IMG/VR virus record: IMGVR_UViG_2695420792_000002
DNA from: a virus
Lineage: Duplodnaviria > Heunggongvirae > Uroviricota > Caudoviricetes
Length of the DNA: 6,025 nucleotides
Direction: 5' to 3' (one strand)
Below are positions 1 to 6,025 of the stretch, piece by piece. The notes beneath the pieces are model-generated. The model was not told the origin of the DNA. It did not search any database and saw nothing but the letters and a program-made list of their open reading frames with translations. Every line of letters starts with the position of its first letter. The stretch's first letter is position 1. Made by a program: the position numbers and the translations under genes.

Positions 1-249
1 TTCGGGGGAAAAACGAGTATTTTTAGTCATCCTGTTTACCTCTTTCTCAGGAAGTTTAGTCTCCAGGATTCCCGGGGCGGTTCAGATATCACCACTATCC
101 AGTCGTTACGCCATACCTCCGATCTTGATACCGGAGAGATGTATGTCTTCCTGTGTAAGGTTGAAGCCTGGGCGGTGAATATTGGCTGCCACCTGACTAT
201 TCCGCAGAGCTGCGAGTTCCAGCTGCTCCGCGACAAGCAGGAGGCGTAA
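1..249 (+). CDS. 3' part of a nin-region ORF whose start lies upstream of the window; hypothetical protein in the position of ybcN in DLP12
   Basis: Frame 1 is open from base 1 to TAA at 247-249 (82 sense codons). Its stop overlaps the ninE ATG as TAATG, preceded by GGAGG. The listed minus-strand ORF 36..284 is its antisense shadow. Product identity not recognised from sequence. Confidence 0.5.
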   Translation, partial: FGGKTSIFSHPVYLFLRKFSLQDSRGGSDITTIQSLRHTSDLDTGEMYVFLCKVEAWAVNIGCHLTIPQSCEFQLLRDKQEA

Positions 250-419
250 TGGCTACACCGCTTATTCGTGTCATGAACGGACACATCTACAGAGTATCAA
301 ATCGTCGTAAGCGTAAGCCTGAGCTGAAGCCATCCGAAATACCAACACTGCTCGGATATACCGCTAGCCTGGTTGATAAAAAATGGTTGCGACTGGCAGC
401 AAGGAGGAATCATGGCTGA
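249..419 (+). CDS. ninE: NinE-family small protein (56 aa)
   Basis: ATG at 249 with GGAGG upstream; translation [56 protein letters not shown] matches my recollection of DLP12 NinE. Below the size cutoff of the ORF track. Overlaps ybcO start by 8 nt. Confidence 0.7.
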   Translation: MATPLIRVMNGHIYRVSNRRKRKPELKPSEIPTLLGYTASLVDKKWLRLAARRNHG

Positions 420-702
420 TTTGAGAAAAGCAGCGCGTGGTCGGGAATGCCAGGTAAGAATCCCTGGCGTATGTAATGGCAATTCTGAAACGTCTGTACT
501 GGCACATATCCGGCTGGCTGGATTGTGCGGTACCGGTATCAAACCGCCAGACCTGATTGCCACCATTGCATGTTCTGCCTGCCACGACGAAATCGACCGC
601 CGCACACATTTTGTCGATGCTGCATATGCAAAAGAATGCGCGCTGGAAGGTATGGCGAGAACACAGGTTATCTGGCTGAAAGAGGGGGTTATTAAGGCGT
701 GA
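412..702 (+). CDS. ybcO: YbcO-like DUF1364 protein (96 aa), Cys-rich, putative metal-binding nuclease
   Basis: AAGGAGG at 401-407 then ATG at 412; translation [23 protein letters not shown]...[11 protein letters not shown]... matches recalled DLP12 YbcO. The track start at 373 (TTG) is an upstream extension with no SD. Confidence 0.8.
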
Positions 703-1061
703 ATACCTACAGTATCACATTACCCTGGCCTCCGAGCAATAATCGCTATTACCGCCATAATCGCGGGCGCACGCACGTCAGTGCAGAGGGGCAGGCATAC
801 CGCGATAACGTCGCCCGAATCATTAAAAGCGCAATGCTGGATATCGGCCTGGCTATGCCTGTGAAAATCCGCATTGAGTGCCACATGCCGGATCGCCGTC
901 GCCGTGACCTGGATAATCTGCAAAAAGCCGCTTTTGACGCACTCACTAAAGCAGGTTTCTGGCTGGATGATGCTCAGGTCGTTGATTACCGCGTTGTGAA
1001 GATGCCTGTTACCAAAGGTGGGAGGCTGGAACTGACCATCACCGAAATGGGGAATGAATGA
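699..1061 (+). CDS. rusA: Holliday junction resolvase RusA (crossover junction endodeoxyribonuclease), 120 aa
   Basis: Translation [37 protein letters not shown]... is the RusA family signature. GTG start at 699 overlaps the ybcO stop (GTGA), indicating translational coupling. Confidence 0.9.
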
Positions 1062-1198
1062 TGTTTGAGTTTAATATAGCAGAACTTCTTCGCCACCGCT
1101 GGGGGCGTCTGCGCTTATATCGTTTCCCCGGTTCTGTTTTGACCGATTACCGAATACTGAAGAATTACGCCAAAACCCTGACAGGAGCAGGAGTATGA
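1058..1198 (+). CDS. ylcG: YlcG-like small protein (46 aa)
   Basis: ATG at 1058 overlaps the rusA stop (ATGA). Translation [46 protein letters not shown] matches recalled DLP12 YlcG. Absent from the ORF track because it is short. Confidence 0.6.
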
Positions 1199-1283
1199 AG
1201 TCAGAGATAACAATCAACTAATACTGTTTTATTGATTTTTGCTTGTAATTGGCGTTCTGGTCTGATTTTTGTGGAGTAAGTTG

Positions 1284-1667
1284 ATGCGTGATATTCAGAT
1301 GGTTCTTGAGCGTTGGGGAGCGTGGGCGGCTAATAATCATGAAGATGTGACCTGGTCGTCCATTGCCGCCGGTTTTAAGGGATTAATTCCTTCAAAAGTA
1401 AAATCTCGCCCGCAATGTTGTGACGATGACGCGATGATCATTTGCGGGTGCATGGCCCGTCTGAAAAAGAACAACAGCGATTTGCACGATTTATTAGTAG
1501 ATTATTATGTAGTTGGTATGACATTCATGTCACTGGCAGGTAAGCATTGCTGCTCTGATGGTTATATCGGGAAAAGGTTACAGAAGGCTGAGGGCATAAT
1601 TGAAGGGATGTTAATGGCATTAGATATCCGGTTAGAGATGGATATCGTTGTTAATAACTCTAATTAA
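1284..1667 (+). CDS. quuD: Late-gene antiterminator Q homolog (127 aa), QuuD-like
   Basis: GGAG at 1273-1276 then ATG at 1284; translation [26 protein letters not shown]...[16 protein letters not shown]... matches recalled DLP12 QuuD. The track start at 1269 is a TTG extension. Position immediately upstream of the lysis cassette fits Q. Confidence 0.8.
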
Positions 1668-1684
1668 TACGCCAATTATTTACT

Positions 1685-1718
1685 AAAAGTTATTAAAAAT
1701 GGGGCGTTGAAACGCCCC
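1685..1718 (-). terminator. Candidate intrinsic terminator for minus-strand transcripts (distal end of the porin 3' UTR)
   Basis: Perfect hairpin GGGGCG-TTGAAA-CGCCCC at 1701-1718. On the minus strand it is followed by AUUUUUAAUAACUUUU (complement of 1685-1700). Confidence 0.35.
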
Positions 1719-1745
1719 CAAAAATAAAGGGTAATATATAACAGA
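1707..1745 (+). promoter_or_regulatory. Speculative late promoter (pR'-like) and Q-utilisation region just downstream of Q
   Basis: TTGAAA at 1707-1712 and TAATAT at 1732-1737 (19-bp spacer), about 40-70 bp past the Q stop, the distance at which lambdoid phages place pR'. Weak match, position-based. Confidence 0.2.
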
Positions 1746-1806
1746 AGGTTTGTATAGTTAGAAGCAAGGTTGTGCTTCTAAAGGAAGTGGCTTGAGGGAG
1801 CCACTT

Positions 1807-1847
1807 ATATGTTGGGGAGGCAAAGCCTCCCACAACATATCTTTTAG
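1807..1847 (+). terminator. Candidate intrinsic terminator for plus-strand transcripts (tR'-like); also sits immediately 3' of the porin stop
   Basis: 15-bp stem with one bulge: ATATGTTGGGGAGGC / AAA loop / GCCTCCC(A)CAACATAT at 1807-1840, followed on the plus strand by CTTTTAG. Confidence 0.35.
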
Positions 1848-1855
1848 TAATCAAA

Positions 1856-2938
1856 TTAGAACTGGTAAACCATACCTACAGCAACGATATCATCGGTAGC
1901 AACGCCAGATGCTTTCGTGAAATCGCTCTTATCAATCAGGTTGATTTTGTAGTCAACAAAAGTGGACATATTTTTGTTGAAGTAATAGGTTGCACCTACA
2001 TCAACATATTCAACCAGGTCCTGATCACCCCAAACACCCAAGTCTTTTCCTTTAGAATGCAGGTAAGCAACGGATGGACGCAGGCCGAAGTCGAACTGAT
2101 ATTGTGCAACAGCTTCGAAGTTTTGTGCTTTGTTGGCAATATGGTTATTACCAAAAACAGTCATGTTCTGGGTTTCAGAATAGGTGGTGGCCAGATAGAT
2201 GTTGTTCGCATCATATTTCAGACCAGCTGCCCATACTTCAGCATTTTGACCAGAAGCATTCAGACCGTTGTTACCGTAGATAACCTGATTATTAGTGCGA
2301 TCAGATTTAGCATAGGTTGCACCTACACCGAATCCTTCATACTCATAAGTAGTGGAGAAACCGAAACCATCACCATTAGCTTCAGTTACGTCAGTGCGGT
2401 CATTTTTACCCTGATACTGAGCAGCAAAGTTCAGACCATCAACCAGACCAAAGAAGTCGTTGTTACGATAAGTTGCAACACCAGTGGTGCGACCAGTCAT
2501 GAACACATCTGTTTGAGTCCAAGTGTCACCACCGAATTCTGGCAGGACGTCAGTCCACGCACCGATGTCGTATGCTACACCGTAGTTACGGCCGTAATCG
2601 ATGGAGCCGTAGTCACCGAATTTCAGGCCAGCGAAGGCAAGACGGGTTTTATCTTTGGAGGAACCTTGAGATTCAGCGCGGTTGCCTTTGAATTCATATT
2701 CCCACTGACCGAAACCAGTCAGTTGATCGTTGATTTGGGTTTCACCTTTGAAGCCAAGACGGGCATAAGTAGTATCACCATCATCTGCATCATTAGAGGA
2801 GAAGTAGTGCTTAGCATTAACTTTCCCGTACAGATCCAGCTTGTTACTGTCTTTATTATAAATTTCAGCTGCCTGAGCAGACATCGCCATCAGTACTGAT
2901 GCAGCTACAGCAGAAATTGCCACTGTTAATTTTTTCAT
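1856..2938 (-). CDS. nmpC: OmpC/OmpF/PhoE-family general porin (360 aa), NmpC / Lc-type prophage porin, apparently intact
   Basis: Translation begins [23 protein letters not shown] (signal peptide) then [16 protein letters not shown]..., with the C-terminal ...VGMVYQF typical of 16-strand porins. Matches recalled NmpC N-terminal region. No internal stop or IS interruption across the full-length ORF. Confidence 0.9.
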
Positions 2939-3300
2939 CGTGAGCCCTTTTTTTTGAACTATTATTAAAAAATGATGTCACTGCGCGATAAATATTCATC
3001 TAATCAATGTGATTATTTCAAGATGTAAGTTTTAGTTTCTCATTTAATTTGTGAAGTAGATCTCTATTTTTATCTGAACTTTTTCTATCGAAACCTATTT
3101 ATGGCTCTTATTTGAACAAAAATAAACCTATTAGCTAATTTATATTAATGGCTGTTATTTATGGGGGGTCTATAATTCGATGGTTTAATTTAAATTAACT
3201 AAAAATAACGCCGGAAATTATTTATTGGTTATTTGTTGAGGTTTTCTTATGTATTTGTGGTGGTGTTTTGAACACTCGGTAGCATTCTCATAAATATCAT
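2939..3300 (-). promoter_or_regulatory. AT-rich upstream region of the porin gene (promoter and probable regulator-binding sites)
   Basis: Strongly AT-rich, ORF-free sequence immediately 5' of the porin start codon on the minus strand, with many A/T tracts. Boundaries are approximate. Confidence 0.3.
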
Positions 3301-3526
3301 TCAGTGGTTTACGTACGTAAAAAATTGGTTATGCTGTTAAGAGTGGTTACTTCGTCACACAGCTTAAACCCGCCGTCGAGCTGGTTTTTCCATTTTTTGA
3401 GTCTCGATATTAGCTGATAACTCAATACCTGAGTTATTCACTGACTCCGAGTCTGTTACGTTTCTGCTTTTTTGCGATACGTTGTATTCCCTCAATTTAC
3501 ACCCGCTTTGTCTGCGAGGTGGGGTT

Positions 3527-3742
3527 ATGAAATCCATGGATAAGTTAACAACGGGTGTCGCCTATGGCACCTCAGCAGGTAGTGCCGGTTACTGGTTTTT
3601 ACAGCTGCTCGATAAAGTCACGCCCTCACAGTGGGCAGCAATAGGTGTGCTGGGTAGCCTGGTATTTGGCCTGCTGACGTACCTGACAAACCTTTATTTC
3701 AAGATTAAAGAAGATAAGCGCAAGGCTGCGAGAGGTGAATAA
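3527..3742 (+). CDS. essD: Phage-21-type class II holin (pinholin S21 homolog), 71 aa, with dual-start motif
   Basis: GAGGTGGGG then ATG at 3527; translation [71 protein letters not shown] closely resembles S21. Met1 and Met4 give the antiholin/holin dual start. The track start at 3482 is a TTG extension. Confidence 0.9.
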
Positions 3743-4239
3743 TGCCTCCATCATTACGAAAAGCCGTTGCTGCTGCTATTGGTGGCGGAGCAATTGCTAT
3801 AGCATCAGTGTTAATCACTGGCCCAAGTGGTAACGATGGTCTGGAAGGTGTCAGCTACATACCATACAAAGATATTGTTGGTGTATGGACCGTATGTCAC
3901 GGGCATACAGGAAAAGACATCATGCTCGGTAAAACGTATACCAAAGCAGAATGCAAAGCACTCTTGAATAAAGACCTTGCCACTGTCGCCAGACAAATTA
4001 ACCCATACATCGAAGTCGATATACCGGAAACAACGCGCGGCGCTCTTTACTCATTCGTTTACAACGTGGGTGCTGGCAATTTCAGAACATCGACGCTTCT
4101 TCGCAAAATAAACCAGGGCGATATCAAAGGCGCATGTGATCAGTTACGTCGCTGGACATATGCTGGCGGTAAGCAATGGAAAGGTCTCATGACTCGTCGT
4201 GAGATTGAGCGTGAAATCTGTTTGTGGGGTCAGCAATGA
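3742..4239 (+). CDS. rrrD: SAR endolysin (phage-21 R-type lysozyme, T4-lysozyme-like, GH24), 165 aa
   Basis: ATG overlaps the holin stop (TAATG). N-terminal Gly/Ala-rich weakly hydrophobic segment [20 protein letters not shown] (signal-anchor-release domain), followed by the E...D...T catalytic region ([24 protein letters not shown]). Confidence 0.9.
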
Positions 4240-4697
4240 ACAGAGTAACCGCGATTATCTCCGCTCTGGTTATCTGCATCATCGTCTGCCTGTCATGGGC
4301 TGTTAATCATTACCGTGATAACGCCATTACCTATAAAGCCCAGCGCGACAAAAATGCCAAAGAACTGAAGCTGGCGAACGCGGCAATTACTGACATGCAG
4401 ATGCGTCAGCGTGATGTTGCTGCGCTCGATGCAAAATACACGAAGGAGTTAGCTGATGCGAAAGCTGAAAATGATGCTCTGCGTGATGATGTTGCCGCTG
4501 GTCGTCGTCGGTTGCACATCAAAGCAGTCTGTCAGTCAGTGCGTGAAGCCACCACCGCCTCCGGCGTGGATAATGCAGCCTCCCCCCGACTGGCAGACAC
4601 CGCTGAACAGGATTATTTCACCCTCAGAGAGAGGCTGATCACTATGCAAAAACAACTGGAAGGAACCCAGAAGTATATTAATGAGCAGTGCAGATAG
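4236..4697 (+). CDS. rzpD: Rz inner-membrane spanin (i-spanin), 153 aa
   Basis: ATG at 4236 overlaps the endolysin stop (ATGA). N-terminal transmembrane helix ([20 protein letters not shown]) followed by a charged coiled-coil-like periplasmic domain. The track start at 4224 is an upstream extension. Confidence 0.85.
4456..4638 (+). CDS. rzoD: Rz1 outer-membrane lipoprotein spanin (o-spanin), 60 aa, fully embedded in the +1 frame of Rz
   Basis: AGGAG at 4443-4447 then ATG at 4456; lipobox-like LVVVGC with Cys20; proline-rich mature part ([15 protein letters not shown]). Entirely inside Rz in another frame, the classic Rz/Rz1 architecture. Confidence 0.85.
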
Positions 4698-5778: not shown

Positions 5779-5790
5779 GGGCGGCGACCT
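5779..5790. other. cosN, the 12-nt cohesive-end sequence GGGCGGCGACCT (terminase nicking site)
   Basis: Exact lambda cohesive-end sequence GGGCGGCGACCT, flanked by lambda-like left-end sequence (CGCGGGTTTTCGCTATTTATGAAAATTTTCCGG). Confidence 0.85.
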
Positions 5791-5942
5791 CGCGGGTTTT
5801 CGCTATTTATGAAAATTTTCCGGTTTAAGGCGTTTCCGTTCTTCTTCGTCGTAACTTAATGTTTTTATTTAAAATACCCCCTGAAAAGAAAGGAAACGAC
5901 AGGTGCTGAAAACGAGCTTTTGGGCCTCTGTCGTTTCCTTTC
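5791..5942. promoter_or_regulatory. cosB: terminase small-subunit binding sites R3, R2 and R1 with an intervening AT-rich IHF-like site
   Basis: CGTTTCC motifs: R3 at about 5831-5848 (CGTTTCCGTTCTTCTTCG); R2 and R1 form a perfect 15-bp inverted repeat GAAAGGAAACGACAG (5888-5902) / CTGTCGTTTCCTTTC (5928-5942); AT-rich TAACTTAATGTTTTTATTTAAAATA between R3 and R2. Confidence 0.75.
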
Positions 5943-5967
5943 TCTGTTTTTGGCCGTGGAATGAACA

Positions 5968-6025
5968 ATGGAAGTCAACAAAAAGCAGCTGGCTGACATT
6001 TTCGGTGCGAGTATCCGTACCATTC
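5968..6025 (+). CDS. nu1: Terminase small subunit Nu1, N-terminal 19 codons only (continues beyond the window)
   Basis: ATG at 5968; translation MEVNKKQLADIFGASIRTI is identical to the lambda gpNu1 N-terminus as I recall it; located just downstream of cosB. Confidence 0.85.
   Translation, partial: MEVNKKQLADIFGASIRTI

Follow-up and report, generated by a model that had tools for sequence, protein, structure and literature searches.

The window analysed here, the whole stretch of 6,025 nucleotides, comes from an E. coli prophage, lambdoid and of the DLP12 type, of which it represents the late region. On its plus strand ybcO, rusA and ylcG lie upstream of the Q antiterminator gene, and Q is convergent with a porin gene homologous to lc of PA-2 and nmpC of P7, for which the RefSeq name beside quuD is porin OmpC. 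Beyond the porin gene follow, in order, the holin gene, the lysozyme gene, Rz/Rz1, bor and the cos/terminase end. The two convergent genes and the features found between them are given below, with the stem-loops numbered along the RNA and the hairpins numbered along the window.

Upstream of Q, plus strand: ybcO/rusA/ylcG
1284-1667, plus strand: Q antiterminator gene of the quuD type, 127 aa (Phage_antitermQ, E 8.5e-54; quuD is annotated in K-12), given as context and lying outside the element
1693-1858, minus strand: ipeX, a gene for a small RNA, of 166 nt in this window, bounded by the porin stop codon UAA and the last base of the terminator U-tract (both included) and forming the 3' UTR of the nmpC-type porin mRNA
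1693-1718, minus strand: Rho-independent terminator ending the porin/IpeX transcript, made up of hairpin 1 (stem 1701-1718) and the tail AUUUUUAA at 1700-1693
1721-1751, minus strand: conserved linker, IpeX nt 108-138, single-stranded both in the MFE fold and in the RNAalifold consensus
1758-1781, minus strand: IpeX stem-loop 3 (hairpin 2), 9 bp
1785-1806, minus strand: IpeX stem-loop 2 (hairpin 3), 8 bp, loop CCCUCA at 1793-1798
1807-1840, minus strand: IpeX stem-loop 1 (hairpin 4), IpeX nt 19-52, 8 + 7 bp with a one-base bulge
1856-1858, minus strand: porin stop codon
1856-2938, minus strand: intact nmpC/lc-type porin gene, 360 aa (Porin_1, E 3e-152), whose mRNA is the parent of IpeX

The stretch 1600-1920 was present in 2504 of the 5426 complete E. 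coli genomes (about 46%), at a median of one place and a maximum of three places per genome, and quuD and the porin gene were neighbours in every one of the matches listed. It was also matched in 41 phage records, PA-2, 434B and P7 included.

The hairpin array and the ipeX gene

We searched the interval 1668-1855, in which the original prediction had placed four stem-loops, for inverted repeats. All four were recovered, with coordinates good to one base. Hairpin 1 lies where it had been placed (arms 1701-1708/1711-1718), its stem being effectively 7 bp of G+C with a 4-nt loop and not the 6 bp first given, and hairpin 2 has the expected 9-bp stem and start (arms 1758-1766/1773-1781) and ends at 1781, the earlier 1782 being one base too far. 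Hairpin 3 at 1785-1806, with its 8-bp stem (arms 1785-1792/1799-1806), and hairpin 4 at 1807-1840, with 15 bp and one bulge (arms 1807-1817/1830-1840, inner arms 1815-1821/1825-1831), were found as described. Folding with RNAfold, which had been proposed as a check on both strands, showed that the 188-nt interval is far more stable than its shuffles, with z about -9 on either strand: the plus strand reached -71.6 kcal/mol against -39.7 ± 3.5 for the shuffles (z -9.1) and the minus strand -67.5 kcal/mol against about -35 (z -8.7), with 0 of 200 shuffles as good in both cases. The hairpins are real and far beyond chance.

The two U-tracts assigned to the ends of the array were also present, one after hairpin 1 on the minus strand and the other, CTTTTAG, after hairpin 4 on the plus strand. 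The sole call of the terminator scan in the interval was hairpin 1 on the minus strand, GGGGCGTTTCAACGCCCC followed by ATTTTTAATA. With seven pairs, six of them G-C, a 4-nt loop and then ATTTTTAATA, it fits a Rho-independent terminator, and a U-rich stretch precedes it in the transcript.

Read on the minus strand from 1858 to 1693, the window showed 95.8% identity over 167 nt to the annotated ipeX gene of K-12, which lies at 574365-574531 on the reverse strand and has 167 nt (supplementary table, PMC8313858). In NC_000913.3 this span begins with the first base of the nmpC stop codon and takes in everything up to the last base of the U-tract behind hairpin 1. The same intergenic region lies in MG1655 between the end of quuD (574339) and the stop codon of the nmpC 3' fragment (574529-574531), and ipeX reaches to 26 nt past the quuD stop. 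The PA-2 sequence 3' of lc (J02580) aligns over the entire element and is identical to K-12 within the aligned block. The covariance model R1, built from 12 lambdoid variants, scored the window ipeX at 197 bits. Resting on the K-12 coordinates of the PMC8313858 supplement, the interval is very probably the sRNA gene ipeX, which is already described and already known and which stands here beside an intact porin gene. The RNA strand is the minus strand, given the K-12 annotation and the polarity of the terminator, and the IpeX 5' end placed at the stop codon appears to follow a convention of annotation and not a mapping. Among the three readings first offered, the third, a structured porin 3' UTR yielding a small RNA, was the right one; the accompanying claim that the three could not be told apart from sequence did not hold, as comparative sequence separates them. 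Identification through Rfam, which had also been proposed, gave 0 families at E <= 1 in 1668-1858 (cmscan, Rfam 15), and the whole window gave at the same threshold just two chance matches to miRNA models, both outside the interval.

The element shares with IpeX of DLP12 (qsr')/PA-2 its locus between the nmpC/lc stop codon and quuD, its strand, its terminator and its sequence. A few substitutions and one single-base indel distinguish it from K-12 ipeX, and they are located in the 5' tail, in the bulge and loop of stem-loop 1, in the linker and in the terminator loop. The porin gene also differs, being intact here, while nmpC of K-12 and of 434B is broken by IS5 after codon 346; with an intact nmpC, the porin promoter can drive IpeX, as in PA-2.

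Published sources describe IpeX as a 167-nt RNA of DLP12, a product of the porin promoter within the porin transcript that is processed from a precursor and controls OmpC (PMC12197685). They place it on PA-2 (PMC8065619) and give its targets as ompC and ompF (PMC5069750, PMC3333887). According to the secondary literature OmpC and OmpF are lowered post-transcriptionally by IpeX, and these sources conflict over its Hfq dependence. The supplements of one term-seq paper and of one Hfq CLASH paper have no ipeX entry. The sRNA of DLP12/PA-2 was described by Castillo-Keller, Vuong and Misra (J Bacteriol 188:576, 2006), who reportedly state in their abstract that the part of ompC needed for the effect shows no complementarity to IpeX, that OmpC was lowered independently of Hfq, and that multicopy ipeX RNA alone, without porin, lowered OmpC and OmpF.

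Conservation of the element and its linkage to the porin gene

The P1-like phage P7 provided the most informative comparison, as its nmpC adjoins ssb and has no Q nearby. Window 1726-3001 aligns to P7 at 75%, and all four hairpins are kept 3' of the P7 nmpC stop codon with different stem sequences, as follows.

P7 stem-loop 1: ATATGCGGG...CCCGCATAT
P7 stem-loop 2: AGGTGGCA-CCCTCA-TGCCACCT
P7 stem-loop 3: GAAGAGGCA...TGCCTCTTC
P7 terminator: GGGCGC...GCGCCC, then seven T

The terminator is kept in all lambdoid variants, and P7 has a different G+C hairpin with U7 in its place. Further variants were obtained by a DNA-pattern scan of viral contigs and from one E. albertii locus; when viral contigs were scanned by protein, all porins recovered were 99-100% identical and no diversity was added. 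The original prediction had made its case depend on the conservation of the hairpins in relatives, and we found them kept, with stems that covary across 14 distinct variants. A structure-blind MAFFT alignment of these 14 gave in RNAalifold the same four helices and an unpaired linker. In the alignment of the 14 variants made with R1, 98.5% of the cells form standard pairs; this alignment is fitted to the model and favours structure, and the independent RNAalifold result agrees with it. Eleven of the 39 pairs were changed on both sides: six (of 15) in stem-loop 1, two in stem-loop 2, both seen in P7, and three (of 9) in stem-loop 3. None of 500 shuffles equalled the fraction paired, the number of both-side changes or the covariation score, and sliding the partners by 1-3 columns brought pairing down to 40-49%. 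The linker, in all about 39 nt (IpeX nt 102-140), is unpaired and sequence-conserved, and in stem-loop 2 the loop CCCUCA is the same in 13 of the 14 variants, with CCCUUA in E. albertii.

We also examined 80 genomic porin loci, one per species. By BLAST and by R1 the element was found only in E. coli and E. albertii, the 78 chromosomal porin loci of other Enterobacteriaceae having no IpeX-like 3' UTR. The chromosomal ompD-like genes of other enterobacteria encode proteins of 76-80% identity, and in the 14 such loci inspected, which include Citrobacter, Salmonella, Enterobacter, Lelliottia and Klebsiella, one strong short terminator lies 20-40 nt past the stop codon. Matches to R1 were confined to the prophage loci of E. 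coli and E. albertii and to P7-type loci. The hairpin array travels with the porin gene and not with Q, and by these sequence comparisons the element is specific to phage-borne porins.

Predicted pairing of the linker with the ompC and ompF leaders

We then compared the linker alone with porin leaders, using shuffled linkers as controls. It is antisense to the ompC leader from -32 to -6, with 15 + 9 bp and a duplex energy of -26.4 kcal/mol; shuffled linkers gave -10.3 ± 2.6 kcal/mol against ompC and 0 of 500 reached the observed value. IpeX nt 108-122 (AACCUUCUGUUAUAU) would pair without interruption over 15 positions, one of the pairs being G.U, with ompC -20..-6 (AUAUAACAGAGGGUU), a region that covers the Shine-Dalgarno sequence, and nt 128-136 (CCUUUAUUU) are predicted to pair with ompC -31..-23. 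A 15-bp helix with G.U allowed is only moderately unusual in A+U-rich RNA, the longest helix in 1000 shuffles having a mean of 9.7 bp and a maximum of 17 bp, and the energy-based test is the stronger one. Against ompF -15..+9 the linker reached -18.6 kcal/mol (p 0.006), and against the leader of the phage porin itself just -12.3 kcal/mol (p 0.05). Cofolding of full-length IpeX with each leader gave the same order, with ddG of -21.0 kcal/mol for ompC, -20.6 for ompF and -10.8 for the phage porin, and in the cofolds all four hairpins were retained and the linker duplexes were formed. The pairing persists in the variants of K-12, of E. albertii and of a third lambdoid type, and in P7 it is shifted toward the start codons.

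The opposite strand of the linker resembles a porin leader, as seen when window AAATAAAGG....ATATAACAGAAGGTT is set against the ompC leader. In P7 the antisense strand GGTAATAAATAACATGAAGTTAAA corresponds to the Shine-Dalgarno region of ompF joined to the start codon and first codons of ompC. These resemblances point to an origin of the seed in a porin start region that was copied in inverted orientation. Stem-loop 2 has in its CCCUCA loop an anti-Shine-Dalgarno-like sequence, which is a possible second contact. A kissing interaction of this loop with the ompC leader hairpin was considered and set aside as speculation, that hairpin exposing GAGG only.

From these data we propose the following course. 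Transcription of the porin gene on the minus strand would pass the stop codon, three stable stem-loops and the unpaired linker of about 39 nt, and would end at hairpin 1 with its U-tract. The structured tail of about 166 nt would be IpeX, either attached to the porin mRNA or, presumably by processing, cut from it. The linker would act as the seed, pairing with the Shine-Dalgarno/start regions of the ompC and ompF mRNAs and blocking their translation, and the phage porin's own leader would go unmatched. A lysogen would thereby swap its host porins for that of the phage. Most probably the role of the three upstream hairpins is to protect the RNA and give it its shape; the U-tail and the U-rich sequence ahead of the terminator are together similar to an Hfq-binding module. 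Tentatively, IpeX may regulate by direct antisense pairing, with a seed left over from a porin translation-initiation region in inverted orientation, a reading to which we give a little less than an even chance. Such a pairing mechanism, drawn from sequence, may conflict with the reading reported by the original authors.

In its layout IpeX resembles the sRNAs derived from 3' UTRs, such as CpxQ, SroC, MicL and UhpU, which likewise come from an mRNA 3' end, use the intrinsic terminator of the parent as their own end, and have an unpaired seed 5' of the terminator hairpin as well as a U-rich sequence ahead of the terminator. It differs from them by its three extra stable hairpins and by its place in a mobile phage cassette. 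With MicF and MicC it shares predicted target sites that overlap the Shine-Dalgarno/start regions of ompF and ompC, and the same outcome, lowered OmpF and OmpC. Unlike them, it is co-transcribed with a replacement porin and has no regulated promoter of its own, and it has no sequence relationship to micF or micC.

Alternative readings and biological meaning

The array could instead be a bidirectional termination or insulation zone between convergent units, with no role in trans, in which hairpin 1 stops porin transcription and hairpin 4 with CUUUUAG stops transcription from the Q side. The flanking genes are indeed convergent, the minus strand has in hairpin 1 an intrinsic terminator of textbook form, and on the plus strand the 15-bp hairpin 4 is followed by CTTTTAG in the window and by CTTTTTCG in K-12. 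The bidirectional zone of the original prediction holds in part: hairpin 1 is the terminator of porin and IpeX on the minus strand, and hairpin 4 may be one on the plus strand. The U-tract of hairpin 4 is lost in P7, where TCTTACC follows, and the plus-strand terminator scan made no call at hairpin 4. Two more hairpins and a conserved unpaired 39-nt linker would be superfluous for termination, and the invariant loop would go unexplained; one short terminator suffices for the chromosomal porin genes inspected. The trans effect of IpeX RNA in published work also argues against insulation, which we consider unlikely.

A second alternative is that the hairpins are cis-only 3' stabilisers, REP-like, that guard the porin mRNA against 3'->5' exonucleases, the effect on host porins being indirect, through competition for export or assembly. 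Stable 3' stem-loops often protect mRNAs, a highly expressed porin can depress others indirectly, and a REP-prediction tool flags ipeX as REP-containing. The identification as a REP or BIME element was nevertheless rejected, since the many dispersed copies were not found: the element occupies a median of one and a maximum of three places in the 2504 E. coli genomes and has no similarity outside porin cassettes. Stabilisation in cis would also leave aside that the linker and the loop of stem-loop 2 are conserved in sequence while the stems covary, and that the linker is specifically antisense to the start regions of ompC and ompF. In addition, ipeX RNA alone reportedly lowered OmpC/OmpF in multicopy, according to the original abstract. 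We regard this alternative as decidedly improbable, although the hairpins taken by themselves may well act as stabilisers in cis.

The interval could also be the late control region itself, with pR' and the Q-utilisation site, and yield a short, terminated plus-strand transcript of the 6S kind, as one of the first readings had it. It is the first intergenic DNA past Q, and in lambda and in the Stx phages pR' lies directly after Q. In Stx phages whose Q is about 76% homologous to the window Q, a putative pR' and a Rho-independent terminator are annotated directly 3' of it, as in the phages 06-3462 and Ss-VASD. But the promoter scan gave no promoter-like site in 1668-1855 on either strand, and the stretch homologous to the Stx-phage pR' and early terminator is window 3307-3389, beyond the porin gene. 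It belongs to the following feature.

3308-3392, plus strand: displaced late-promoter region, 77% identity to the putative pR' and Rho-independent terminator of 06-3462 and Ss-VASD

The pR' homologue within it, TTTACG-16 nt-TATGCT at 3308-3335, has the porin start on one side and the holin gene on the other, and downstream of TATGCT a conserved initial transcribed stretch is followed by the terminator-like AAACCCGCCGTCGAGCTGGTTTTT (3367-3392). With pR' in this place, the porin gene and ipeX (roughly 1690 to 3300) are a moron inserted between Q and pR'. Two other phages also speak against a late control region in the interval: in P7 the hairpins accompany nmpC beside ssb and there is no Q, and in Lambda_2E9 a Q gene of about 87% DNA identity is followed at the same place by a different convergent moron, blc, without this sequence. 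The interval thus shares with the pR'-qut-6S RNA-tR' module of lambda its position directly downstream of Q and nothing else, differing by the missing promoter, by a pR' homologue 1.6 kb further on and by hairpins tied to the porin. The late-region reading did not survive this comparison, and we give it very little probability.

A small protein is scarcely credible, whether from the minus-strand ORF at 1693-1854 (53 aa, TTG start), present in the mechanical listing, or from ORF1, annotated on the plus strand in the PA-2 record of 1986 (J02580): Pfam gave no match, the minus-strand frame is broken by one-base indels between close variants, the substitutions are compensatory in the stems and not synonymous, and P7 carries a large insertion.

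Returning to ipeX as the 3' end of a phage porin transcript, what is of interest beyond the known gene is the explicit pairing model, the origin of the seed from an inverted porin start, and the porin-ipeX cassette found in lambdoid and P1-like phages. For the annotation of prophages, a hairpin array just past Q need not be a late control region, since morons between Q and pR' bring their own 3' structures. If direct pairing is true, and if the original report found no complementarity, as its abstract reportedly says, the mechanism of IpeX would have to be revised. For the lysogen, the locus would represent a lysogenic conversion by RNA, in which a prophage porin and an sRNA lowering the host major porins are produced from one transcript. 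OmpC is the receptor of phage PA-2, so that IpeX would also exclude superinfection. As the locus is present in about 46% of complete E. coli genomes, it may influence the permeability of the outer membrane and the uptake of antibiotics in many clinical strains. If true, the proposal would define a mobile cassette, a replacement porin together with an sRNA against the host porins, that is common to lambdoid and P1-like phages.

Position of the porin-ipeX unit relative to the late promoter

The gap from the porin start to the holin gene was found to contain the following element, recognized by its likeness to what is annotated in Stx phages as a putative pR':

3308-3392, plus strand: pR' homologue, initial transcribed stretch and terminator-like hairpin

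The pR' homologue reads TTTACG-16 nt-TATGCT; next to it on the 3' side come an initial transcribed stretch that is conserved and then a weakened terminator-like hairpin (AAACCCGCCGTCGAGCTGGTTTTT). As the pR' homologue lies in this gap, the porin-ipeX unit is a moron whose insertion point lies between Q and pR'.

Conserved elements of IpeX and the porin loci

Comparison of 14 ipeX variants and alignment with porin leaders pointed to two elements of the small RNA gene:

1793-1798, minus strand: loop CCCUCA of the second IpeX hairpin
1719-1751, plus strand, and 2504-2528, plus strand, in phage P7: porin-start-like sequence opposite the IpeX linker

The loop was unchanged in 13 of the variants, with CCCUUA in E. 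albertii, and in P7 the stem beneath it covaries while the loop is kept. It is complementary to UGAGGG, a sequence present both in the Shine-Dalgarno region of ompF and in a hairpin of the ompC leader. The strand opposite the linker resembles the translation-initiation region of a porin gene: in the window it aligns with ompC -32 to -6, and in P7 it reads GGTAATAAATAACATGAAGTTAAA, which corresponds to the Shine-Dalgarno region of ompF joined to the start codon and first codons of ompC. The resemblance suggests that the linker arose when a porin 5' end was duplicated in inverted orientation.

We examined about 200 nt after the stop codon of each chromosomal ompD-like porin gene (L006-L022; Citrobacter, Salmonella, Enterobacter, Lelliottia and Klebsiella; 76-80% protein identity), and within this distance no IpeX-like extension was present; these genes showed one strong terminator 20-40 nt past the stop. 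The window nmpC is uninterrupted, whereas those of K-12 and 434B are split after codon 346:

2092-3286 in K-12 and 3320-4514 in 434B: IS5 in nmpC

In both, ipeX lies only some 60 nt downstream of IS5 and is itself unbroken.

Other repeats and the cohesive end

1623-1646, plus strand: inverted repeat GATATCC...GGATATC within the Q coding sequence, at its 3' end
5779-5790: lambda-type cohesive-end sequence GGGCGGCGACCT, which we take to be cos
5884-5946: long inverted repeat, imperfect, shortly before the Nu1-like start at 5968

In a simple scan the first repeat was flagged as a terminator-like site of the plus strand; G-C pairs make up only 3 of the 8 in its stem, its T-tract is weak, and the likeness is probably due to chance. 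The long repeat was the source of an Rfam match to mir-578, rejected as fortuitous.

Genes near Q in other lambdoid phages

Different morons occupy the Q-proximal region of other lambdoid phages:

2335-2859 in Lambda_2E9, convergent with Q: blc lipocalin gene, directly after a Q gene of about 87% DNA identity
1162-2121 in 434B, opposite strand: lpxR-like lipid A deacylase gene, upstream of ylcG

Host-envelope genes appear to have a hotspot here, close to Q.
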